From an uncultured Gemmatimonadaceae bacterium (lineage in GTDB: Bacteria > Gemmatimonadota > Gemmatimonadetes > Gemmatimonadales > Gemmatimonadaceae), in NCBI GenBank assembly GCA_963740355.1, contig CAVUDW010000002.1, positions 1,888,001 through 1,952,000 of the forward strand: a DNA stretch of 64,000 nucleotides. The letters are read 5' to 3'. The notes under the pieces are model-generated. The model had not been told where the DNA came from. It saw nothing but the letters and a program-made list of their open reading frames with translations, and did not search any database. Below, one piece after another: positions 12,246 to 23,445 of this stretch. Positions within the stretch are counted from its first letter, which is position 1; each line of letters starts with the position of its first letter. A program made the translations under genes and the position numbers.

Positions 12246-14957
12246 ATGCACGAACAGGGCAAGCGCAAGACAGGAAACGGTGGTGGGGCCACTCGTGCGT
12301 CGTCGCCCCCGCGGATCAGCAGCGCCATGCTTGGGCAGAACACGCCGGAGATGGTGGCGGCCATCGAGGCGATGCCAGCGACTGACGGCGCCATCGATTC
12401 AATGTCCGAGATGCTGCGTCAATCAGGCGGTGCCGACACGATGCCCGGGATGTCATTCACCGGCGACGCGGCCACCGAGATGCTGCATGGCATGGACATG
12501 GACGGCGGCGCTGGTGGTGGCGACGACGTGATGCGGGGCGGACCGCCACGCGATGACGCCGCGGCAACCGACACAGGTGGTGAGCAGATACCGGTGCTGC
12601 TCGAATTGCGTGTCGACGCGGGCAATGCGGCGCGGAGTGCGTTCCAGATCACCGGCGCCTTTGCCAACTCGGGCTTCGCGCTCGATGATGGGTTCGAGGC
12701 AATTCCGATGGAGGCGCCGCGTGCAGAAGGAGAGAGTCTGCGTGCGGGAGCGGCAGCCGAAGCCACGCTCATCGTGCGTGGGACGATCGCCGCTGACCAG
12801 ATCGCAGCGCTCGAAGCACGGCCGGATGTGGTCAAGGTCTGGCGCGACACACGTATCGAGCCGTTCGGTGCGTCGATCGCCGAGGTCGAGACACAAACCG
12901 CATTGGTCGCACCGCTGGCCGCATTCGGTGCCTGCCCGATCGGCACCTGCGACTGTTCGCCAGGCACTCCGAAAGGCACGATGGCGGACGTCGCGAACTA
13001 CCTCGGCGTGGACCAGATCTGGAGCGCGGGCTATCGCGGAGAGGGCATCGTGGTCGGTGTCGTCGATGGCGGCATCACCGCGCAAGGCCGTCCGATCAGC
13101 GCGTCGGACACCTCGAAGCCCGACTGGCCGAACAAGCTGGTGCCGAATGTGATCGGCGGGTTCCCGGCGACGAATTGGGGCACGACGGGTGCGGGTTGGG
13201 GATGGCACGGCAACATGACGTCCACCGACGTGCTTGGGATGGCTCCCAATGCACGTGTCTACGACATTCGAATCGGTGATGCGACCATTGCAACGACCAT
13301 CTCCAACGCACTCGCCGGCTTCCAGTGGGCGATCAACCAGCATCGCACCGACGGCACACCGCAGATCCTCACCAACAGCTGGGGTATTTTCCAGGAATCG
13401 TGGGATCCGCTTTATGCGCGCGATCCGAATCATCCCTTCACGCGCAAGGTGGTCGAGGCGCTGAACGAAGGGATCATCGTGATGTTCGCCGCCGGCAACT
13501 GTGGCGGTACCTGTCCCGACGGTCGATGTGGTGCGGATAGCGGTCCCGGTCGCAGCATCTGGGGGGCGAACAGTCACCCGCGTGTGATCACGGTGGGGGC
13601 CGTGAATCGCAACGAACAATTCGTGGGGTACAGCAGCCAGGGCCCCGGTGCACTCGATGCGAACAAGCCGGACTTCTGCTCGATCACACACTTCACCGGT
13701 TTCTTCAACAGTGACAGCGGTACCTCGGCTGCGACTCCGATTGCCGCGGGCGTGGCGGCCCTGCTGAAACAGGCGAGTCCGGGGCTGACACAGGATCAGT
13801 TGAAAGCCACGCTGCGCAACACTGCGAAAGACATCGGACCGGCCGGATGGGATCAGCACTCCGGGGCGGGCATCATTCGACCGCGCATTGCGTTCGACAC
13901 TGTTGCACCCGCACCGGAGCCCTCCGGCCCCGCGGTATCCTGGGGCCCGAATCGACTCGACATCTTCGTGCTCGGCACCAATCGCGCGATGTGGCACAAG
14001 TGGTGGAACGGTGGGTCATGGGGACCGTCGCTCACCGGCTTCGAGTCACTTGGCGGGATCTGCAACACCGCCCCTGAAGTGGTGGCGTGGGGGCCGAATC
14101 GTCTCGACGCATTCGTGCTCGGCACCGATTCCGCGCTCTACCACAAGGCGTGGAATGGCTCGTCGTGGAGCCCGTCGGTGGCTGGATACGAACGCCTCGG
14201 TGGTGTCTGTCAGTCGCGGCCGAGTGTGGCGAGTTGGGGACCGAACCGCCTCGATGCATTCGTGACCGGCACGGATTCCGCGCTGTATCACAAATGGTGG
14301 AACGGCTCCGGATGGGGCCCGTCGGCAACAGGCTTCGAATACATGGGTGGTGTGTGTCTCGGAGAACCGAAGGCGGTCGCGTGGGGACCGAACCGTCTCG
14401 ATGTGTTCGTACTGGGCACCAACCGCGCGTTGTACCACAAGTGGTGGAACGGCTCGGCGTGGGGGCCATCCGTCACGGGGTACGAGTACATGGGCGGCGT
14501 CTGCAGCAGTTCTCCTGAAGTCGTGGCCTGGGGCGCAAACCGCCTCGATGTGTTCGTGCTTGGCACCAACCGCGCGTTGTATCACAAGTGGTGGAACGGC
14601 TCGGCCTGGGGGCCGTCGGTGACCGGGTATGAGTTCATGGGTGGCGTCTGCGCATCACCGCCAACGGTGGTGTCGTGGGGTGCGAACCGGCTCGATGTCT
14701 TCGTGATCGGCACCGATTCGGCGCTCTATCACAAGTGGTGGAATGGCTCGGCGTGGGGCCCGTCCGTCACCGGCTGGGAGAACATGGGCGGCGTCTGCAC
14801 CAGCCCTCCACGCGTCGTGGCGTGGGGGCAGAACCGACTCGACGTCTTCGTCACGGGTACTGATTCGCAAGTCTACCACAAGTGGTGGAACGGATCCGCG
14901 TGGGGACCGTCGCTCACCGGCTGGGAAGCACAGGGAGGAATCGTCACCGGATTCTGA
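12246..14957 (+). CDS. S8 subtilisin-like serine protease with C-terminal 7x49-aa PLL-like lectin beta-propeller
   Basis: Triad VVDGG / WHGNM / SGTSAATP, oxyanion AAGN; seven WGxNRLDxFVxGTxxxxxHKxWNG repeats; no signal peptide. Confidence 0.92.
13928..14954 (+). repeat. Coding tandem repeat, 147-bp period x7 (propeller blades)
   Basis: CACAAGTGGTGGAACGG-like motif recurring every 147 nt. Confidence 0.9.
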
Positions 14958-14986
14958 TCACGACGCGGTGAACCAGAGGCAAGTCA

Positions 14987-15026
14987 ACGCGGAGCGGCGT
15001 CGGGTGAGTCCGACGCCGCTTCGTGT
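14987..15026. terminator. Hairpin between convergent genes, probable terminator
   Basis: GCGGAGCGGCGTCGG-GTGAGT-CCGACGCCGCTTCGT. Confidence 0.55.
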
Positions 15027-15083
15027 GCGTCCGCCCCACACCCTTTGAACCCCGGCCGTCGCCGCGACGCTGGGCGTGACAGT

Positions 15084-16325
15084 TCAGGCGGAGACGGTGG
15101 CGGGCTGACAGTCGAGCAGATGCCCGTGATGAAAGCCAAGTCGCGGATCGGCATTCTTCGGCATCGGGATGTACTCCTGGATGTCCGGCATCTTCACCCG
15201 CAGGCGAATCGTGTTCGACGGGTAGTCGTAGATCGTGATGTGATTCAGGCCGCGATTGGCGGTGAAGAGCAGCGACTGATCGGCACTCAGCTTGCAGGCG
15301 TGCACCGAGTCCATCATGGTGAATCGACTCACGCGCATCGCGCCAAGCAGGTGCTCGGTCTGTGTGAACAGGCCGCCGCGCGCCAGCGTGTCGTAGAGCT
15401 GCGTCTTCGCCTGGCGCCGATTGGCGAACTGCTCACGAAGGCCAGGCTTCTCGTCGATGATGCGGAAGGTGGCGAAGTCGTCGAGCTGGATGAAGACGAT
15501 CGTCTGGCTCGCGCCATTGCAGAAGATCAACTCCGTGTCGGAGATCGTGAGGTCGCTGTTGATGTGCGCTGGGATGTCGCGGCCGGCGCTCCAGTGGCGC
15601 ACGATCTCTCCAGTCGCGGCATCCACTTCGAACGCGTATTCTCGCAGGTACGAGATCGCCCACTGGTGATAGTCCACGCGGTCCATCGGGTGCACACGAA
15701 ACGAAACGCCGTAGAAGAGGTCCTCGGTGCGATGTGGCACCGTGTGCCAGCAGGTGGCCGGGAGCTTCACGACTCGGATCTCGCCGGATCTGGTGTCCCA
15801 GATCCCCATCTCACGGGCCTCGCCGTGGCGACCCTTGGCAGGGTTGTCCATTGCGCCGAACACGATGTAGCGGCCTGACTTCGTCTGCTGCAGACCGTGT
15901 ACGATGCCCATGCCATGCTGCGCGAGTTTCTCCGGCTTCGAGAGCGACTGCGCGTCGAAGAGGTAGAGATGATCGCCGACGGAAGTGACGAAGCGGCGCT
16001 CGTCGAGCCAGACCGCGTGGGTGCTCCCGCGAAGCGAACTGTCTGGGATCTCGAAGCGGAGCGTCGAGATGCGATCGAGCTCTGCGCCACTGCGTGTATC
16101 GTAGAGCAGCAGGTGCTGGCCAGCGTTGCCCAGAAATCCGATCGAACCGGTTGGGTCTACGGTGGTGGCGTGACCTCCGGCGATGCCGTCGTGGAAGCGG
16201 ATGTTGTAGGCGTAGCTGTTGTCCGCCGGATCGAACAGAAAGATGCAGAGCCCGGCACGACCCTCGAGGCCGTTGATGCCATTGCCATCGAGTGCGATGT
16301 GGAACGCGTAGGGGTACCGCTTCAT
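15084..16325 (-). CDS. Uncharacterised cytoplasmic beta-propeller with recurring His residues
   Basis: Blade-like motifs GHATTVDP, THAVWLD, VHGLQQT, WHTVPH, AHINSDL, VHACKLSAD, FHHGHL; xxDxxSG turns. Confidence 0.75.
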   Translation of the reverse strand: MKRYPYAFHIALDGNGINGLEGRAGLCIFLFDPADNSYAYNIRFHDGIAGGHATTVDPTGSIGFLGNAGQHLLLYDTRSGAELDRISTLRFEIPDSSLRGSTHAVWLDERRFVTSVGDHLYLFDAQSLSKPEKLAQHGMGIVHGLQQTKSGRYIVFGAMDNPAKGRHGEAREMGIWDTRSGEIRVVKLPATCWHTVPHRTEDLFYGVSFRVHPMDRVDYHQWAISYLREYAFEVDAATGEIVRHWSAGRDIPAHINSDLTISDTELIFCNGASQTIVFIQLDDFATFRIIDEKPGLREQFANRRQAKTQLYDTLARGGLFTQTEHLLGAMRVSRFTMMDSVHACKLSADQSLLFTANRGLNHITIYDYPSNTIRLRVKMPDIQEYIPMPKNADPRLGFHHGHLLDCQPATVSA

Positions 16326-16453
16326 GTCGCAGATTCCGGTGATGGTTCATCAGTGTCGCGCACAACGATTCGCGCCCGCCTTGCCAGAGCCGCCCCACCC
16401 AATGCACACTTCGCGTTCTGTCGTGTCACAGGAGTGGCCACTCACGAGCTGCC

Positions 16454-16798
16454 ATGCAGAACGACTTCTCTGATCTCGAACAGCGTGCGCTCGAACTTCC
16501 CGTCGGCACGGCCACACCGCTGACACGCGACGAGGTGGATCGTCTGCTGCGTGATCCCGCCTACCGCTCGAGCCTCGGCACACCCGCACACGCCACCCAC
16601 TTTCGCCGGCCCCTCGCCGATGGTCGCGGCATGCACCTGGTGATCGATGCCGAGGGGAACGCGGGTCTGCACTGGGATCGCTTCGACCCACAAGCGAGTC
16701 CGACTGGACTCATGATGCACCTGCTGACCGATGCGCCGGAGCAGGCGCTGTCGCTGTTGGCCGCTGGATCAGCGGTGCTGCGCCGGCTCGGTGGCTGA
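16454..16798 (+). CDS. Small hypothetical protein (114 aa)
   Basis: Good coding bias; conserved-looking GMHLVI..LHWDRFDP...HLLTDAP core; 30-nt 3' overlap with the convergent gene. Confidence 0.7.
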   Translation: MQNDFSDLEQRALELPVGTATPLTRDEVDRLLRDPAYRSSLGTPAHATHFRRPLADGRGMHLVIDAEGNAGLHWDRFDPQASPTGLMMHLLTDAPEQALSLLAAGSAVLRRLGG

Positions 16799-17356
16799 CG
16801 CGCGCCGCGATCCTGTCGAGCCGTTGGTGACGAAGACTTCGACCGCCGCACCTAGATCCTGCAGGGTCTTCGCCAGCAACGTCGCTGCTGCATCCTCGAG
16901 CCCTCCCTTCAGCCGTCCCTGACCGAGTGGGCCCAGGGCGCCCGGACCGAGCGACGCCGAGATCTCGAACGACATGCGACTGCCACGTCCGCCCATCGCT
17001 GATTCGAGGCGCGTACTGCCGGAACCGGAGAGGCTGCCTGCCAGCAATCGCGACTCGACGGTCCAATGCGACTCGAGTTTGCCTTCGTGCCAGCTGGCGC
17101 GTTCGACCCACGTGAGCGCGTCACCATCCACGAAGCGTCCCATCGCCGAGGGCAAGGCTGCGCTCGCTCGCCACTCGTGCACGGTGCTGACCACACCATC
17201 GGCATCACCGGCATGTTCGAGTCGCGTGACCGACTCGATCCCCTTCATCCACGATGCCACCGATGGCAGGTCGTCTCGCAACGCAGACCAGACGCGCTCG
17301 GGGGGCACTCGCAGCATCACCATTCGCCGAAGGTTGACCTTCTGGTGTTCGTTCAT
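16769..17356 (-). CDS. SRPBCC/START-fold (polyketide cyclase-like) protein
   Basis: LRVPPERVWSALRDDLPSVASWMKGIESV N-terminus and C-terminal capping helix; ATGA overlap with the upstream gene. Confidence 0.75.
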   Translation of the reverse strand: MNEHQKVNLRRMVMLRVPPERVWSALRDDLPSVASWMKGIESVTRLEHAGDADGVVSTVHEWRASAALPSAMGRFVDGDALTWVERASWHEGKLESHWTVESRLLAGSLSGSGSTRLESAMGGRGSRMSFEISASLGPGALGPLGQGRLKGGLEDAAATLLAKTLQDLGAAVEVFVTNGSTGSRRASATEPAQHR

Positions 17357-18411
17357 GCACGCTCCGAGTAGGTGTGGAGTTCAGAGAACGGCGCCGAGGC
17401 AGGCACCTGAAGCCAGGCCCGAACGTCGGGTCGGATGTGATCGGTGCGGAGGAGCCAGCTGATTGCGGTTTGCAGCGCAGCCTGCGTCCCGGTCGATCGG
17501 TACCCGATTGCACGAGCGGCGCTGTCGTCGTACCAGTACCAACGTCCCATCATCCGCACTTCGTCTCGCGTCAGCGCGGGAGGCAGCCCGGACGTGCGCG
17601 AAAACCACTCGGCCCAGGCTGCAGTGAGGAAGGCGCCTGTATGTGTCGCCGTCAGCAAGGGGCCCGTCGTACCGCAGAGCGCGGAGATCTGGGAGTGCAG
17701 GTCGCGCCACGACAGGTTTTCAGCGCCGAGGATGTACGAGCGGCCCGGCGTGCCCTTCTCAGCGACGAGCAGATGGCCGCGTGCGATGTCGGTTGCCGCG
17801 ACCACGTTGCAACCACCGGCAAAGGTCGTGCGGAACGGATCGTTGAGATACTTCACGATGATCGCATTGCTTTCCGAGAGCCCGTAATCCCACGCACCCA
17901 TCGTCAGTGTCGGGCAGACGGCGACGAGCTCGATGCCGAGCGAGGCTGCCGTCGAAAACGCCACCGCCGACTGCCTGAACTTCGAGACGGCGTACGCTGA
18001 TGCGTCCTCCGCCGTGAATGATGCGTCCTCGTTCCGTGGCTCGGCTGACGCTGACGACCCGAAGATCACCGATGACGAGGTCAGCACCACACGCTTCACG
18101 CCAGCTCCAGCGGCGGCGGTGATCATGTTTCGCGTGCCATCGATCGCCACCTGCTCGAGCTCGGAAGCGTTGGCGTTCCCGTACGAGAACCGTGCGGCGC
18201 AGTGAAAGACGCAGTCGACACCTGCCGCCGCTGAACGCAACGAGGCTGGGTCGAGTACATCGCCTTCAGACAACTCGATCGGCAGGCCGCTCAGCGCGCG
18301 TCGTGGCGGGCCGCGGCGGACGAGGGCCCGCACGTCCCATCGTTGCGCGAGCAGTTCGCGAACGAGGTTGGCTCCGACGATGCCGGAGGCCCCCGTGACG
18401 AGCGCCTTCAT
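17353..18411 (-). CDS. NAD-dependent epimerase/dehydratase (extended SDR, dihydroflavonol-reductase/HpnA-like)
   Basis: MKALVTGASGIVG, VFHCAA, LTSS, YAVSK. Confidence 0.9.
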   Translation of the reverse strand: MKALVTGASGIVGANLVRELLAQRWDVRALVRRGPPRRALSGLPIELSEGDVLDPASLRSAAAGVDCVFHCAARFSYGNANASELEQVAIDGTRNMITAAAGAGVKRVVLTSSSVIFGSSASAEPRNEDASFTAEDASAYAVSKFRQSAVAFSTAASLGIELVAVCPTLTMGAWDYGLSESNAIIVKYLNDPFRTTFAGGCNVVAATDIARGHLLVAEKGTPGRSYILGAENLSWRDLHSQISALCGTTGPLLTATHTGAFLTAAWAEWFSRTSGLPPALTRDEVRMMGRWYWYDDSAARAIGYRSTGTQAALQTAISWLLRTDHIRPDVRAWLQVPASAPFSELHTYSERA

Positions 18412-20627
18412 GCCGAAGCCTCGCGCGCTTGTGGCGTGAAAGGCGTGGCCCCGATCGCAGCGAGGTCGCGACCAACGGCCTTGCCCAGCTCGGCGAGAAA
18501 GGTCATGGGTGTGAGGTCGGTCACGGCGCCGATCGGCGAACGCGCTCCGGACACGACACTCGGAGAGCCAAGGTTGCCAGCGAAGTGGGCGAAGCCCAGA
18601 TCATCGATGGCCAGCGGTTGCACTGACCCGGCGGCAGCGCTCTCGTCCGGCGTCGCCCATCCGAAGATCCGCGACACGAGCGCAATCGCGCCGGTGAGCA
18701 GGGCGCGAAGCTCCGAACCTTCCTCGATCGCACCGACGAGGACGGGCGGCTTGCCGATACGAAAGCTGCGCCCATCGTAGGCGGCGCGGAGATTCGCCAT
18801 CGTGCCATCGAAGAAGCGACCGTATGCGTCCGCCACCAGTTCGCCGTGTACGCCAGGCCAGCGTTCGATGCGCGCCGCGGCAAGCATGGTTGGCAGCTTG
18901 AATCGCTGTCGTGCGAAGACCTGTACCTCGACCTGGCCGGCGCCAGTTCGCCGAAAAGCCACGCACCCGTCATCGGAGTCAGCGGATCCATTCACACTTT
19001 GCATCGTGCGCCAATCGATCCGCTGCTCATCGCTCGAGTAGTGCATCACCTCGAGCTTCTCGACATCGATACTGTCGCCACCAAAGACGGCCGTCCAGTT
19101 CGGCTGCGGCAGGTAGAGATTCCGCTCGGCCTGTCGTGTCGGACGTCCTTCGGCATCGCGGGTGATCACACGCCAGGAGCCGCCGAGGTAGTCGTTCATG
19201 TTGCGAATCGACGCCGAGATGTCCACTCGCTCGACGAAGCTGTCGTAGTCGAGCGGGAGTAGGCGTTGCGCGGCGAAGTGGATGTGCCCGGCCACGGTGC
19301 GGAATCGGAAGCCGCGTGAGTCCTGCGGCGCTCCATCCAGCACCCGAGATTGTGCCGCCACGATCCGGCGCGTTTCGTCGAAATCATTTGGCGAGAAGGT
19401 GCGCAGGTCGAGGTTGATCGGCGCCAGCGATTGTCGGACGTCGCCCTTCGTGACGTTGGTGGAGAAGGTCTCGCGTGAACCAGCGAGAAAGCCGAGCAGG
19501 CTCTCGAGGAGGGTCTCGATCCAGTCGCGCACTCGTGCATCGCTGATCTTGTCGAGACGGCCAAGCACGGTTGCCGAGACCTGATCCACGATCACATCGC
19601 GAAAAGGGAAATGCTCGCGATCGGTCACTTGCAGCACGGCGGTCGCAAAGGCGTCCAGTTCAGGCCAGCGGCTACGACTGCGAATCGCGTCGATTCGGGT
19701 GGCCGTCGGATTGGTCCAGTCACGCCATGGCGATGCGTCGCCGTCAAGCACCCATGCCGAGGGCAGACCTACCTGATCGAGCGCACGACCGTTGATGGGT
19801 GAGGAGTGTGGATCACCACTCATCTTCAACGCGCCGATCCAGTCGGCGAGCAGGGCATTGGGCGATGCAATGATCGTGTCGGTCTGGATCGGGTTCGAGA
19901 TTCGGGAGCCCGCGCGTCCGTGACTGCCGACCACCGCATCGATCAGCGCAAAGTCCGGTGGACAGGCGCGCAGCAGTTGCAGCGCGGCGTCTTCCGGCGA
20001 CCAGTGCGTGGCGTCGCATTCGGTGGAGACGAGACCCAGCAGGTTGGCGACGGCGAGCGCGTAACTCCATGCGTCGTCGGTCTTCGCTTTCGCAAAAGAG
20101 ATTCGGATATCCGCTGATGCCCATACGCCGTTGACGCGAAGTGCTCCGGAGTCATCGTAGCGATCGAGCGCCACTGGCTGCGGGTCGTCGTCCACCCACG
20201 CAAAGTCGTATGGCTGCCCTTCCGGTGCCTCGAAGTGATAGCCGATGAGATCGGGGACTGAGAGGCCTTCGCGGTTGCACAACCAGCGGTCCGGCTTGTT
20301 GCGTCCATCGCAGAGCGTGACGTTCGCATAACCGGCAGTTCGCAGCTTGACGACCAGCAACTCGACCAGCTGCGGATCAGTACCCGTGTGCGAGTCGAGG
20401 GCGAACACATCGAGATCAGGCTTGATGACGATCGCGAGGTCACTCTTTCGCCGACGTCGAGACGCCCGTCGCTTGCTGAGCATGCTCCAGAAACCGGCAG
20501 CCTCGAGCGCACGGTCGAGCAACGATTCCGGTGTTGCACCGTGCTCGTGTGCAACCGCGACGGCGACCGGTGCCGTCGTGCTTGCTGGAGTCGCGATGTT
20601 CGAAATCGAAGTGCGCGTGCCTGTCAT
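18408..20627 (-). CDS. DUF362-like domain fused to a C-terminal START-like domain
   Basis: IVIKPD..TDPQLVELLV..KAKT..PPDFALIDAV..TIIAS.NALLADW (DUF362-like). The C-terminal IDWRT...DDGCVAF...VEVQV + long helix segment fits a START fold. Confidence 0.7.
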   Translation of the reverse strand: MTGTRTSISNIATPASTTAPVAVAVAHEHGATPESLLDRALEAAGFWSMLSKRRASRRRRKSDLAIVIKPDLDVFALDSHTGTDPQLVELLVVKLRTAGYANVTLCDGRNKPDRWLCNREGLSVPDLIGYHFEAPEGQPYDFAWVDDDPQPVALDRYDDSGALRVNGVWASADIRISFAKAKTDDAWSYALAVANLLGLVSTECDATHWSPEDAALQLLRACPPDFALIDAVVGSHGRAGSRISNPIQTDTIIASPNALLADWIGALKMSGDPHSSPINGRALDQVGLPSAWVLDGDASPWRDWTNPTATRIDAIRSRSRWPELDAFATAVLQVTDREHFPFRDVIVDQVSATVLGRLDKISDARVRDWIETLLESLLGFLAGSRETFSTNVTKGDVRQSLAPINLDLRTFSPNDFDETRRIVAAQSRVLDGAPQDSRGFRFRTVAGHIHFAAQRLLPLDYDSFVERVDISASIRNMNDYLGGSWRVITRDAEGRPTRQAERNLYLPQPNWTAVFGGDSIDVEKLEVMHYSSDEQRIDWRTMQSVNGSADSDDGCVAFRRTGAGQVEVQVFARQRFKLPTMLAAARIERWPGVHGELVADAYGRFFDGTMANLRAAYDGRSFRIGKPPVLVGAIEEGSELRALLTGAIALVSRIFGWATPDESAAAGSVQPLAIDDLGFAHFAGNLGSPSVVSGARSPIGAVTDLTPMTFLAELGKAVGRDLAAIGATPFTPQAREASA

Positions 20628-20857
20628 CTGCGAGAGGGCGAGACGGTGGCGTACGTCTATCGATGTGAATGCTCGTGCAATTGCACTGCAAGAACGAAGT
20701 TGCAAGGTCGTGTTCGCTGATACTTCACACGACTCTTCAATACAGAAGACGTCTTGACGCAGCGAGTGTGCTCATGCAACCTGTGTCGCAATGACAACGT
20801 AGGTTTGATCGCGCGCGTCCACAACGTGCTTCGCTGCAGAAGCAGGAGTGAACGGGA

Positions 20858-21424
20858 ATGAGCGTCAGCGTACCGCAACCGTTCCACACCACGGTGCACG
20901 CCGCGCAGCCGTTTCGCGCGAAAGTCGAGGGCGTTCCGACGTCGTTCACGATTGGAATTTCCGATCTGCCGTCGCTGGATGTGTCGGTGGAGAAGATCCC
21001 GGTGCTGCACCTGAGCGTTGACGCGATCCCCGCGGTGCATCTCAGTGTGGACGCCATTCCACCGTTGCACATCAACATCGACACGCTGCCGCCGATCAAG
21101 GTGGAGCTCGCTCCGATCGAACTCAAGCTCAGCGAAATACCATCGACGCGTGTGCATATCCCGGCAGACTTTGCGGTCAGCCTGTCGCTGCTTGGAATGG
21201 ACTTCGGCTCGGTGCGGCTGTGTGGCGAGGCGCAAGTCATCACCGAGCCGTACAAGCCGAACCCGTGTGAGATCTGCAGTCGGGCACCCGCTGATGCGGT
21301 GATCGTGAAGCCCACCGAGCCGATCGTGCCCAGGCCGAACGATCCTGTCGTGGTGAAGCCGCGCGATCCGGTGGTGGGTCAGCCGGTCACGCCCGTGACG
21401 CCGACGCCACGTCCACCGAATTGA
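20858..21424 (+). CDS. Hypothetical protein with 10-aa hydrophobic repeats, a CxxC and a Pro-rich tail
   Basis: AGGAG RBS; ISDLPSLDVS/VEKIPVLHLS/VDAIPAVHLS/VDAIPPLHIN/IDTLPPIKVE; PCEIC. Confidence 0.8.
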   Translation: MSVSVPQPFHTTVHAAQPFRAKVEGVPTSFTIGISDLPSLDVSVEKIPVLHLSVDAIPAVHLSVDAIPPLHINIDTLPPIKVELAPIELKLSEIPSTRVHIPADFAVSLSLLGMDFGSVRLCGEAQVITEPYKPNPCEICSRAPADAVIVKPTEPIVPRPNDPVVVKPRDPVVGQPVTPVTPTPRPPN

Positions 21425-21427
21425 TGT

Positions 21428-22186
21428 ATGGCGCAGGCGACAAAGACCGAGGGTGAACCGACCGCCGTCCGCTTCCGCGGCATTCCGTCCGGGCTGACAG
21501 GTGTCATCCCCGAGCTGACGGAATCGGCGTCGGAGATTGCGCTCACGATTCGTGGCGTGCGTGAACCGAAGGATTCCATCGACTTCATGGTTCAGTCCGA
21601 CATCGATCCGCGCGTGTTGCGACTCTTCCTGCCGGCGGACGTGGTGCCTGGCAAATACAGCGGTGTCCTGTCGCTCGACGGCAACACTCGACCGGCGCAG
21701 GTGGAAGTTGAGGCTGCACCCCATCTGCGCGCCTTCCCGGAACAGCTGCGACTCACTGCGCGACCCGGTGAGACAGTCAGGCAGCAGCTCACCGTGCTGA
21801 ACGATGGCAACGTGACTGTCACGCTTCGCAAGGTGCAGGCATTCGGAGTGATCCTTGCTGGAGGCATCGAACGGGCGTTGCGTCGTGCCTATGTGACCAG
21901 GCTGGCCGAGACCCAGCGGCGCGTGGATGTGATCGCCGACTCGATCGCCGCGGCACACGGCGGACTGGTGAAGATGTCGCTCGACGGTGGGGCCGTGTCG
22001 CTGCGACCCGGTGAGTTGCGCGAAATCGACGTCACGATCCGGCTTCCCAACGAGCTATCGCCGGGAGCGGAGTATGGTGGCAACTGGGAAGTCGCCGGGC
22101 TCGTCTATCCCGTCATCATCCAGGTATCGGGCACGAAGACCGAGCCGAGTGACGACGAGCATGACGATCCGCCCGTCGTCAACTGA
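21428..22186 (+). CDS. Hypothetical protein with probable Ig-like beta-sandwich domains
   Basis: PGKYSGVL, PGETVRQQLTVLNDGNVTV, LRPGELREIDVTIRLP..PGAEYGG; starts 3 nt after the upstream stop. Confidence 0.8.
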   Translation: MAQATKTEGEPTAVRFRGIPSGLTGVIPELTESASEIALTIRGVREPKDSIDFMVQSDIDPRVLRLFLPADVVPGKYSGVLSLDGNTRPAQVEVEAAPHLRAFPEQLRLTARPGETVRQQLTVLNDGNVTVTLRKVQAFGVILAGGIERALRRAYVTRLAETQRRVDVIADSIAAAHGGLVKMSLDGGAVSLRPGELREIDVTIRLPNELSPGAEYGGNWEVAGLVYPVIIQVSGTKTEPSDDEHDDPPVVN

Positions 22187-22265
22187 GCAGTCGCTGTGGT
22201 ACGACGGCGAGACGAACCACCGCTCGCATGTGACGTGGGAACGCCAGACCTCTGGAGACTCTACG

Positions 22266-22910
22266 ATGGCTTCGACGACGAAAGCCCGGCCGATGGGCGA
22301 TGTGCCCGGCGCATTCATGGGACTGCTGGCCGCGCAGATGAAGCTCGGGCAGCAGTTGTATGAAGACTTCACCGGAATGAAGGCACCGGACATGACATCG
22401 TCGATGTCGCAGTCGTGGAACGCCTGGCAGGAGGCGCTCATGAATCCTCCCGTGGCGACGCCGTCCTGCAGCGTTCCGCCGCCGTGCTGGATGCCGAAGA
22501 AACTCGGCGACATCACCAGCTACGCCTGCGGCTGCAGCACCGTCAAGGTGAAGATCGAAGTCACGAACTGCGACCGTGTGGCGCGAACCTTCAGCGTGCG
22601 GAGCGATGGCGTGGAGGGGGTGAAGATCGCACCCGACTCCATCAGCCTCAACCCGATGCGGCGGGGGACGATCGAGGTCTCGTTCAAGCTGCCGGAGGAC
22701 ATCGACGAAGGCACCGAGTATGAAACGCTGCTCTGGATCGAGGGCTGCAACCAGCACGTCCTGCGGTGGACCATCGTCGCCGGACACGCGGGGATGGATT
22801 CCACGCACGAAGTGAAGGTCAGCGATTGCCCGGACTACCGGCATCACTGGTACGACCACTTCTACTGCAATCGACCCTGCTCGCACACCCGGGTAACGCG
22901 CAATGGCTGA
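22266..22910 (+). CDS. Hypothetical Cys/His-rich protein (amphipathic helix + Ig-like domain)
   Basis: GGAG RBS; CSVPPPCWMP; C-terminal DCPDYRHHWYDHFYCNRPC; 9 Cys. Confidence 0.85.
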   Translation: MASTTKARPMGDVPGAFMGLLAAQMKLGQQLYEDFTGMKAPDMTSSMSQSWNAWQEALMNPPVATPSCSVPPPCWMPKKLGDITSYACGCSTVKVKIEVTNCDRVARTFSVRSDGVEGVKIAPDSISLNPMRRGTIEVSFKLPEDIDEGTEYETLLWIEGCNQHVLRWTIVAGHAGMDSTHEVKVSDCPDYRHHWYDHFYCNRPCSHTRVTRNG

Positions 22911-23445
22911 TCGGACACAGATGGAAGACGTTATGCGCCGCGCGTTCGACGCCAACCTGCGTTACTGGGAAACAGTCGGGCGTGCGACCACCGACTACGT
23001 GCAGACAGTCTCGAAGTTGTGGGCCGACGCGCCGATCAGTTGGAAGCCGGCCACCATGACCTGGAACCCGGCCACCTGGGCGGGGCAGCGCACCGCGCAC
23101 GCTGATCACCGTCACGACGCTGCCGTGGCGCCAGCGCTGGTGCTCGAAGGGGTGGCTGGCGCGCAGGTTCGGACGGTGCTGATGATCAGCAATGACCTCA
23201 CCTGTGATGCCGACGCGACGGTCGAGATCTCGACGCTGCGCGGTCCCGATGGCCGCTTCGCGTCGGTCGAGGTCCGCGCCATGCCCGAGTCGTTGACGCT
23301 CGTCGCTGGTGCGCGTGCACCCGTCACGCTGGTGGCCGACATCACCGACGCCTTGCATGTGGACACCGACTATCACGGAGAAGTGACGGTGCCCGGACTG
23401 TCGACGAAAGGCGTGCCGATTGTGGTGCGGCGACGGGCGAAGTAG
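22903..23445 (+). CDS. Hypothetical protein (amphipathic helix + Ig-like domain)
   Basis: 8-nt overlap with the previous gene; helix RRAFDANLRYWETVGRATTDYVQTVSKLW; PESLTLVAG...YHGEVTVPG. Confidence 0.8.
   Translation: MADRTQMEDVMRRAFDANLRYWETVGRATTDYVQTVSKLWADAPISWKPATMTWNPATWAGQRTAHADHRHDAAVAPALVLEGVAGAQVRTVLMISNDLTCDADATVEISTLRGPDGRFASVEVRAMPESLTLVAGARAPVTLVADITDALHVDTDYHGEVTVPGLSTKGVPIVVRRRAK

Follow-up and report, generated by a model that had tools for sequence, protein, structure and literature searches.

A conserved bacterial gene cluster that combines a His-rich propeller, START-type and SDR proteins with a portable module of Ig-like proteins

Introduction

The subject of this work is a nine-gene cluster found in a 64,000-nucleotide stretch of the genome of an uncultured Gemmatimonadaceae bacterium (GenBank assembly GCA_963740355.1, contig CAVUDW010000002.1, positions 1,888,001 to 1,952,000; hereafter, the window). 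Its closest described counterparts come from several systems: START/SRPBCC proteins, such as StAR and CERT; the hopanoid-associated extended short-chain dehydrogenase/reductase (SDR) HpnA and the sterol C-4 demethylation SDR SdmB; propellers of the YVTN/lactonase type; the LarA/DUF2088 superfamily; and, as a matter of concept only, phasins on polyhydroxyalkanoate (PHA) granules and family 2 encapsulins. A 2026 review of START proteins in bacteria (PMC13525633) contains none of the words DUF362, epimerase, and propeller in its main text. DUF362 and DUF2088 share the Pfam clan CL0471 (the LarA N-terminal domain clan), according to a paper that uses DUF362 only as an outgroup (PMC11770544); in the literature consulted, no description of the function of any DUF362 protein was found.

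The cluster spans positions 15084 to 23445 of the window (~8.4 kb) and consists of two modules, an enzyme arm and the four genes R1 to R4. It is a real conserved gene set with a distribution that reaches from Gemmatimonadota to Actinomycetota. In our reading, to which we assign a probability of roughly 45%, it encodes a single cytoplasmic system for a hydrophobic, probably isoprenoid-type, metabolite, in which R1 to R4 would form a non-enzymatic binding or scaffold assembly. An initial annotation, made from the sequence of the window alone, did not recognize the locus as a described pathway, and, indeed, no curated family, solved relative, or paper found by keywords matches the cluster. The keyword search returned nothing describing it and covered mainly the open literature, so that a description may exist elsewhere.

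Results and Discussion

Composition of the cluster

The nearest named relatives of the locus are metagenome-assembled genomes of Gemmatimonadaceae. Open reading frames (ORFs) were found at the positions named in the initial annotation throughout the region studied (12246 to 23445). The features of the cluster are listed below in window coordinates, which are used for gene positions throughout, with the type of evidence in parentheses.

15084..16325, minus strand: PROP, 413 aa, seven-bladed beta-propeller (AlphaFold2 model, alignment, fold comparison)
16454..16798, plus strand: small conserved gene, 114 aa, no family (tblastn in five loci)
16769..17356, minus strand: stand-alone SRPBCC (START-superfamily) protein, 195 aa (Pfam)
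17353..18411, minus strand: extended SDR, 352 aa, HpnA-like (Pfam, NCBIfam, motifs)
18408..20627, minus strand: DUF362-START fusion, 739 aa (Pfam and predicted fold)
20628..20857, no strand: divergent intergenic spacer, 230 bp (composition)
20858..21424, plus strand: R1, 188 aa, repeats and a conserved domain (repeats, alignment across 14 loci)
21428..22186, plus strand: R2, 252 aa, two immunoglobulin (Ig)-like domains with a helical insert (alignments)
22266..22910, plus strand: R3, 214 aa, helical N-terminal part and Ig-like domain (alignments, hhalign)
22903..23445, plus strand: R4, 180 aa, helical N-terminal part, linker, Ig-like domain, and short basic tail (alignment, hhalign)

Conservation of the two arms

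Scanning metagenomes with the propeller profile yielded 80 loci, which, together with the window, five loci in genomes, and an actinomycete locus (L112), make up a set of 87. Most metagenome contigs are short, and the phylum surveys cited below are samples. Next to the propeller gene, SRPBCC is encoded in 74 of the 87 loci, SDR in 66, and the DUF362 protein in 51, with all four genes present in 45; most of the remaining propeller contigs are short or end beside or inside this block. In 24 loci (23 distinct ones, L028 being the same as L029), R genes are located no more than 12 kb from the propeller gene; they are absent from a single locus with at least 3 kb of sequence on both flanks (L064), the other 62 loci not permitting a call. 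In all four reference genomes found to encode the propeller (G000, G013, G219, and G795), the R genes are adjacent to it, and five Gemmatimonadota loci, one of them from Longimicrobiales, contain the full set from the propeller to R4 in the same arrangement as the window. Co-occurrence of the two arms beyond this genome was the test that the initial annotation had set for itself, and the arms do co-occur, with 24 loci having R genes near the propeller versus one scorable locus without them.

The gene order varies among lineages (arrowheads indicate the direction of transcription; R1v and R3v are variant forms):

Window: PROP< small> SRPBCC< SDR< DUF362< R1-R4>
Many metagenome loci: PAP2< PROP> SRPBCC< SDR< DUF362< R1-R4>
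L059: R4< R3< R2< PROP>
L087: R genes, then PROP> DUF362> SDR> SRPBCC>
Actinomycete genome: PROP> R1v R2 R3v R4> SDR< DUF362<

Because the neighborhood is kept across lineages despite these changes in order, the data support treating the two arms as one unit. The loci range in GC content from 34 to 72%, and the named matches include Gemmatimonas, Chthoniobacterales, Nitrospirae, Burkholderiaceae, Novosphingobium, Terrabacter, and Pedococcus. At the same time, the genes are rare. Of the 301 Gemmatimonadota genomes sampled, 2 encode the propeller, as does 1 of 401 genomes from the phylum of an actinomycete; R2 is found in 4 of 301 genomes from the phylum of an acidobacterium and in 7 of 41 same-genus genomes, including the window's own; a pattern scan of one genome per species detected nine R2 loci. 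The cluster is best explained as an accessory set that has spread horizontally. A tblastn search of 72,556 plasmid records with the propeller and DUF362 proteins gave no match to either.

Such a rare and patchy distribution, along with the existence of R modules lacking the propeller arm and of a few propeller arms lacking R genes nearby (L064 and L061), would also be expected of functionally independent arms that travel together on a shared mobile island. We consider this alternative quite improbable, as the adjacency survives at least five gene orders and the entire 34 to 72% GC range, the loci with R genes stand at 24 against the single determinable one without, and no integrase or transposase families appear among the conserved neighbors (no search was aimed at them).

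Gene calls, junctions, and cellular location

The initial annotation described ten contiguous genes in the region. Their placement is correct, while the tenth gene was assigned to the wrong ORF. The minus-strand ORF at 16350-16691 has just one relative, at 40% identity (L008/L014, two copies of one contig), whereas the plus-strand ORF at 16454-16798 is 49 to 68% identical to its counterparts in five syntenic loci (tblastn). The gene at 16454-16798 shares 30 nt with the SRPBCC gene, at the 3' end of the latter, and is confined to Gemmatimonadota-type loci (10 of the 87 propeller loci); its product has no Pfam match. Because this small gene sits on the plus strand, the left arm is not the single coupled operon that had been suggested: the DUF362, SDR, and SRPBCC genes form one unit, followed by the opposed small gene and then by the propeller gene as a unit of its own.

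The finer details of the layout were described accurately. The sequence TCAT (ATGA on the minus strand) is present at both proposed overlaps, 18408-18411 and 17353-17356; R1 and R2 are separated by a 3-nt gap (21424 to 21428), and R3 and R4 overlap by 8 nt (22903-22910). The 230-bp spacer is AT enriched, with a GC content of 53.9% versus 65.1% for the window, a value so low that only 0.14% of 230-bp windows reach it. This spacer (20628-20857) presumably houses promoters for both arms. A sigma-70-type promoter scan found no sites, a result that carries little information in this phylum. For the start of the DUF362 gene, there are several candidates, namely, TTG at 20705 (the first in the ORF), ATG at 20627 (739 aa), and TTG at 20522 (704 aa, the database call); a start at TTG 20522 would extend the spacer to 335 bp.

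The reported lack of signal peptides also held up in a hydropathy scan, a crude check rather than a dedicated predictor: none of the cluster proteins has an N-terminal hydrophobic stretch (Kyte-Doolittle 12-residue maximum of ≤1.62) or a transmembrane-like segment. In the same scan, many of the neighbors reach values of 2.0 to 3.4.

The enzyme module

PROP is the most conserved protein of the cluster, with ~60% identity across phyla (Chthoniobacterales, Nitrospirae, and mine-drainage records). The family counts 878 matches at E ≤1e-3, all of them unnamed or "hypothetical" and none with a Pfam domain. PROP itself belongs to no Pfam or NCBIfam family and has no sequence match to any solved chain. 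Its designation as a His-rich propeller proved apt: the protein contains 21 His among its 413 residues, an alignment of 23 members shows 11 invariant His and 3 invariant Cys residues, and the AlphaFold2 model (pLDDT 82.7, pTM 0.87) is seven-bladed. The solved folds closest to this model in the VIA comparison are YVTN/lactonase-type propellers, namely, 1l0q (Z 30.6, root mean square deviation 2.5, 289 aligned residues), 1jof (Z 29.1), and 6nau (Z 28.8). PROP is probably a metalloenzyme. A carotenoid-cleavage-oxygenase-type propeller was considered because of the invariant His residues; no such chain appeared in the Foldseek and VIA lists, which leaves this type possible.

The stand-alone SRPBCC protein (16769-17356) scores 29.6 bits with DUF2505, above the cutoff of 26.9, and 27.2 bits with Polyketide_cyc2, just under the cutoff of 27.4. 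The SDR (17353-18411) is a confident member of the Epimerase family (PF01370, E 9.7e-29, 100.9 bits versus a cutoff of 20.9) and retains the GxxGxxG motif (GASGIVG at residue 7) and the YxxxK motif (YAVSK at residue 140). Among its solved relatives, 3wj7 comes closest, and cinnamoyl-CoA and dihydroflavonol reductases come next; the nucleoside-diphosphate (NDP)-sugar epimerase 2x4g is also one of these relatives.

The largest protein of the cluster has an N-terminal DUF362 domain, as stated in the initial annotation (PF04015, E 5.7e-14 in the ORF at 18408-20705; 53.2 bits versus a cutoff of 24; residues 66 to 265, positions 19833-20432). This domain is followed by a helical linker and a START-like helix-grip domain at approximately residues 440 to 617 (18777-19310). 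The gene is 53 to 64% identical in the five syntenic loci. The AlphaFold2 model of residues 290 to 705, built with 22 homologs (pLDDT 82.7), contains the helical linker, a seven-stranded sheet, and a long C-terminal helix. Foldseek searches with this C-terminal model retrieved the START domain of ACOT11 (2.3e-6), StAR (5.5e-6), and TTHA0849 (TMt 0.70), with CERT, carotenoid-binding START, and aromatase/cyclases among the further top matches; among the matches listed, down to an E value of ~2e-4, all are START, Bet v 1-type, or PRELI/Ups1-type lipid-binding proteins. The C-terminal domain is thus predicted to fold as START. Outside DUF362, the protein has no Pfam match, and the protein-atlas rows, at 0.87, serve as leads only; nor does it match in sequence any solved chain, START proteins included. 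Counted together with the stand-alone SRPBCC protein, which is assigned by Pfam, this domain, assigned by its predicted fold, accounts for the two START pockets that the initial annotation attributed to the left arm. Homologs of the DUF362-START protein are encoded in several cultured isolates, including Novosphingobium chloroacetimidivorans, Terrabacter spp., Pedococcus dokdonensis, and Amycolatopsis sp.

In other lineages, the enzyme module includes additional genes. A PAP2 lipid-phosphate phosphatase (PF01569, E 3.3e-20), a predicted membrane protein, is encoded beside the propeller in 30 of the 87 loci; its best NCBIfam match is the undecaprenyl-diphosphatase SepP (47.9 bits, cutoff 250). 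An aldo-keto-reductase-like gene is found in 7 of the 87 loci, and its best NCBIfam match (80.5 bits) is likewise under the cutoffs. The genome of the window has no cluster-linked PAP2, aldo-keto-reductase-like, polyprenyl synthase, or geranylgeranyl-reductase-family gene.

These family assignments could be taken to indicate a system for cell-envelope glycan or carrier-lipid metabolism, with the SDR acting as an NDP-sugar epimerase and PAP2 as an undecaprenyl-diphosphate phosphatase: the best NCBIfam model for the SDR is named "hopanoid-associated sugar epimerase," 2x4g is one of its solved relatives, and SepP is the best match of PAP2. However, all these scores fall below the family cutoffs, and genes for glycosyltransferases, flippases, or sugar activation do not recur among the conserved neighbors. 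With two START pockets in the enzyme arm and no signal peptide or membrane segment in any of the nine window cluster proteins by the hydropathy scan, we regard this alternative as quite improbable. The overall theme of the enzyme arm, judging from SRPBCC, the START-fold model, the HpnA/SdmB-like SDR, and PAP2, is a lipid one.

The R1 to R4 proteins

The initial annotation found most genes to have no assignable function, and this remains true of the right-arm proteins and the propeller, none of which belongs to a Pfam or NCBIfam family. R1 contains seven Pro-containing repeats of ~10 residues (positions 37 to 99), followed by a conserved domain with the pattern PADF..LCGEAQVITEPY.PNPCE.C; in the alignment across 14 loci, the number of repeats varies among lineages and the Cys-bearing domain is conserved. 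No Pfam family was matched at the cutoff, all matches being at chance level (E ≥0.07). The possibility that R1 is the precursor of a ribosomally synthesized and posttranslationally modified peptide (RiPP) was considered and rejected, as its C-terminal part is conserved and its repeat region is variable. The usual leader/core pattern of RiPP precursors is the opposite of this.

R2 belongs to a large family of 1870 representative clusters at E ≤1e-3, a number that falls to 412 at E ≤1e-30; each of the 150 members listed is a stand-alone protein of ~170 to 350 aa. The 47 closer matches are all unnamed or "hypothetical," and the nearest protein-atlas clusters are either unnamed or of the ASH/HYDIN-type Ig variety; sequence comparison with solved chains gave matches at chance level only. 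Features that are invariant across the wide family include the PPGxY and NxGN motifs (G75, Y77, N125, G127, and N128), P194, and Y216. R3 has conserved Cys/His motifs (C.IPPPCW ... DCPD..HHWYDHFYC.R.C), and R4 ends in a basic tail, which is short in the window and longer and K/R-rich in other lineages. The initial description of the right arm as Cys/His-rich subunits therefore fits R3, with 9 Cys and 7 His among 214 residues, and not R2, which has no Cys, or R4, which has one.

According to hhalign, the Ig domains of R3 and R4 are homologous (probability 97%, E 4.5e-11), and that of R4 is also related to the second domain of R2 (91.6%, E 8e-7). These profile comparisons indicate that R2, R3, and R4 are paralogous proteins built on one common Ig-like domain. 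Similarity to domains of the PapD/ASH/MSP type was seen only below cutoffs (Cep192_D3, E 0.0086; PapD_N, E 0.025; protein-atlas rows, 0.84 to 0.86). A predicted R3-R4 complex scored 0.42, with the best of three controls at 0.00, which weakly supports an interaction: of the solved complexes, 116 of 157 reach this mark, compared with 2 of 215 mismatched pairs. However, the cases that reach it with scores of ≤0.60 comprise only 18 of the 157 solved complexes and both of the passing mismatches. At least 71% of the contacts agreed between the prediction runs, and the partner pLDDT was at least 79.

R1 to R4 constitute a portable module, which, in the absence of the propeller arm, too, always lies beside genes for hydrophobic metabolites. 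In L009, L010, L013, L019, L021, L022, and L107, such a module lies next to genes for a polyprenyl synthetase (PF00348, 97 to 105 bits) and a geranylgeranyl-reductase-family protein; the reductases of L022, L009, and L019 score 195.6 to 203.9 bits with TIGR02032, above its cutoff of 158.8. In L020, the module is accompanied by IspH, polyprenyl synthetase, and methyltransferase genes. R modules are also found beside or within polyketide synthase (PKS) and nonribosomal peptide synthetase (NRPS) genes (L009 to L012 and L108). The propeller was not found in any of the five genomes with a propeller-less R module, one of which is 100% complete. L040 has both the propeller arm and R1 to R4, along with PAP2 and two reductase-family genes.

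In the acidobacterial R module of L108, a KS-AT-KR-ACP-methyltransferase PKS (L108:11840-17170, minus strand) is inserted between the R3-like and R4 genes, and in L010, a FAAL-ACP-KS-AT-aminotransferase protein flanks the R module.

A variant R module is present in seven loci (L011, L012, L075, L087, L089, L108, and L112). It comprises an R1-like protein with PxPIKTES-type repeats and a Cys-packed R3-like protein (CGCxxDCGCGG, CxCHCECCVC) that ends in CC or CCxx. These endings resemble lipidation or metal-cluster motifs.

A gene for F11, a small helical protein of ~115 to 145 aa with a K/R-rich C-terminal tail and no Pfam family, often occurs together with the polyprenyl synthase and reductase genes that adjoin R modules. 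Its representatives include L019:4065-4409, L022:14388-14747, L010:1-438, and L031:5790-6209; in L031, F11 follows the DUF362 gene. Phasin homology was considered for R4 and F11 and rejected: the best match to Phasin_2 (PF09361) came from one R4 homolog at E 0.32 and 11.7 bits, and the other proteins scanned gave none.

The Cys/His motifs of R3, which are typical of metal sites, the 11 invariant His residues of the propeller, and the tight coupling of the R genes would all suit a factor that serves the partner enzymes in assembly, as a chaperone, or in regulation, such as one involved in metal loading of the propeller or in sensing of the lipid product. Nevertheless, four proteins with a repeat array exceed a typical metallochaperone. 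Furthermore, R modules are present in five genomes in which a search did not find the propeller, next to polyprenyl synthase, geranylgeranyl-reductase-family, and PKS genes, and because it adjoins such unrelated enzymes, the module is not specific to any one of them. Taken together, these observations make a chaperone or regulatory role improbable.

The neighboring subtilase-lectin gene

Ahead of position 15084, the region studied contains two further features:

12246..14957, plus strand: S8 subtilase with seven DUF346 lectin-type blades, a neighbor and not a member of the cluster (Pfam, motifs, repeats)
14994..15019, no strand: GC-rich inverted repeat with 10-bp arms and a 6-nt loop, located between the S8 and propeller genes, which are convergent

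The protein encoded at 12246-14957 belongs to Peptidase_S8 (PF00082, E 5.2e-30, 105.2 bits versus a cutoff of 21.8) and contains DUF346 (E 1.8e-33). Its catalytic motifs are intact, with D274, H321, and S494 located in DGG at 274, HGN at 321, and GTSAATP at 492, and its lectin part consists of seven NRLDxF repeats with a period of 49 residues. The score with the mycosin model TIGR03921 is 104.8 bits, short of the cutoff of 278.75. The ~250-residue N-terminal part is of low complexity and has no N-terminal hydrophobic stretch, which is unusual, since export would be expected of a subtilase-lectin.

The initial annotation included this gene in the system, as its least certain member, and suggested that its product possibly matures the right-arm subunits. 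Neither proposal found support. The gene is convergent with the propeller gene, has no ortholog in the five syntenic Gemmatimonadota loci, and any S8 gene occurs within 12 kb of the propeller in just 3 of the 87 loci; moreover, the S8 genes near other loci are only 24 to 28% identical to it. The subtilase-lectin gene is outside the conserved system. The inverted repeat at 14994-15019, which separates the two convergent genes, is likely a transcript boundary; it is omitted from the terminator scan because it has no T-run. Two other S8 peptidases without signal peptides, L022:17662-19431 and L059:3271-5172, are 39% identical to each other, and each is encoded a few kilobases from an R module. 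Their contexts otherwise differ, and they are related to the S8 protein of the window at the family level only.

The view that the right arm forms an exported or self-assembling fiber or coat with subunits matured by the adjacent protease could draw on this signal-less S8 subfamily near the R modules of L022 and L059 and on the PapD/ASH-type Ig-like leads for the R proteins, all of them below cutoffs. Yet the S8 gene of the window is convergent, is not conserved in synteny, and is distant in sequence from those genes; S8 genes are rare near the propeller, the cluster proteins lack signal peptides, and the conserved set contains no gene for an usher, a secretin, or a transporter. This explanation is very improbable.

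A proposed role in the handling of hydrophobic metabolites

The reading that we favor is that the two arms act together in the cytoplasm on a hydrophobic metabolite. The enzyme module, which consists of PROP, SRPBCC, SDR, and DUF362-START proteins and elsewhere also includes PAP2 and sometimes the aldo-keto-reductase-like protein, would make or remodel a water-insoluble small molecule, most likely an isoprenoid-type compound or another long-chain lipid alcohol or carbonyl compound. In this scheme, the two START pockets may shuttle the substrate between the enzymes for redox chemistry and the propeller. R1 to R4, which bear no enzyme signature, might associate as a hetero-oligomer and in that form bind, scaffold, or sequester either the hydrophobic product or its enzymes. 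Such a role of R1 to R4 would account for the attachment of one and the same module to polyprenyl-synthase/geranylgeranyl-reductase arms and PKS/NRPS arms as well.

Several observations weigh against this proposal. The isoprenoid link rests on other lineages because the cluster of the window has no linked isoprenoid genes; the polyprenyl synthase, geranylgeranyl-reductase-family, and PAP2 genes of its genome are distant copies only. R genes are missing from L064, which has room for them on both flanks, and from L061, which continues for 4.6 kb past the DUF362 gene. Among lipid-binding, phasin, and shell families, none is matched by the R proteins. The C-terminal domain of the DUF362 protein gave an hhalign probability of 0.2% in comparison with the neighboring SRPBCC family, and, because profile comparison found nothing, its assignment to START comes from the predicted structure. 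The glycan-carrier alternative retains some probability because the SDR family includes NDP-sugar epimerases and PAP2 has an undecaprenyl-diphosphatase as its best match. Finally, the gene maps of the fetched loci depend on a GC3-based ORF picker and single-linkage BLAST clusters.

A bolder version of the proposal would see in R1 to R4 an unrecognized, hetero-oligomeric cytoplasmic Ig-like scaffold or coat that organizes or sequesters insoluble products, with R1 acting as a "ruler" through the length of its repeats. Such a scaffold could be plugged into isoprenoid, polyketide, and START/SDR/propeller pathways and passed among them across phyla, and the cluster of the window would then build a small lipid-handling body that has a chemistry of its own. 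In this specific form, the idea is doubtful.

Whatever the exact role of the cluster, two large unannotated families, those of the propeller and of R2, are now tied to a defined and testable gene set, and the pairing of DUF362 with a START pocket offers a concrete way into the chemistry of DUF362. Should the R module turn out to be an accessory of hydrophobic-metabolite pathways in general, it would be relevant to the question of how insoluble lipids and terpenoids are managed in the bacterial cytoplasm and may become a tool for engineering terpenoid or polyketide production.

Comparison with described systems

No known anti-phage defense system was recognized in the cluster: among ten proteins scanned, PADLOC-DB matches none of the nine of the cluster, the only match being the S8 neighbor (to a subtilase model), with the propeller at the chance level (E 0.0083).

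The SDR matches the HpnA model (TIGR03466) over its full length (residues 1 to 325, E 1.6e-70), but with 237.6 bits, it does not reach the cutoff of 367.65, and its score with the SdmB model (NF052578) is 142.2 bits versus a cutoff of 600. There are no hopanoid or sterol genes beside it. To our knowledge, the propeller, DUF362-START, and R1 to R4 genes are not among the partners in hpn and sdm loci.

The DUF362-START protein joins two known lines: its N-terminal domain is in the same Pfam clan as the LarA/DUF2088 superfamily, and its C-terminal model has the same helix-grip fold as StAR, the ACOT11 START domain, CERT, TTHA0849, and the aromatase/cyclases. PROP is seven-bladed, like the YVTN/lactonase-type propellers (1l0q, 1jof, and 6nau), nitrous oxide reductase (2iwf), and the SBP56-type protein (2ece), with Z scores of 25.6 to 30.6, and, like the His-lined propeller enzymes among them (2iwf and 2ece), it is rich in His, with many of these residues invariant in its family, although its sequence identity to all these chains is just 6 to 14%.

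The R module invites comparison with family 2 encapsulins and with phasins on PHA granules, a likeness that is conceptual only, in that the non-enzymatic proteins of the cluster stand beside lipid or isoprenoid enzymes. No encapsulin, bacterial microcompartment (BMC), or phasin gene was seen in the loci, and, as far as we know, the Ig-like fold of the R proteins is not that of encapsulin, BMC, or phasin shells. Still, the polyprenyl synthases beside R modules have the encapsulin-cargo polyprenyl transferase model (NF041169) as their best match, at 76.9 to 84.7 bits versus a cutoff of 450, and R4 and F11 combine helical parts with basic tails.

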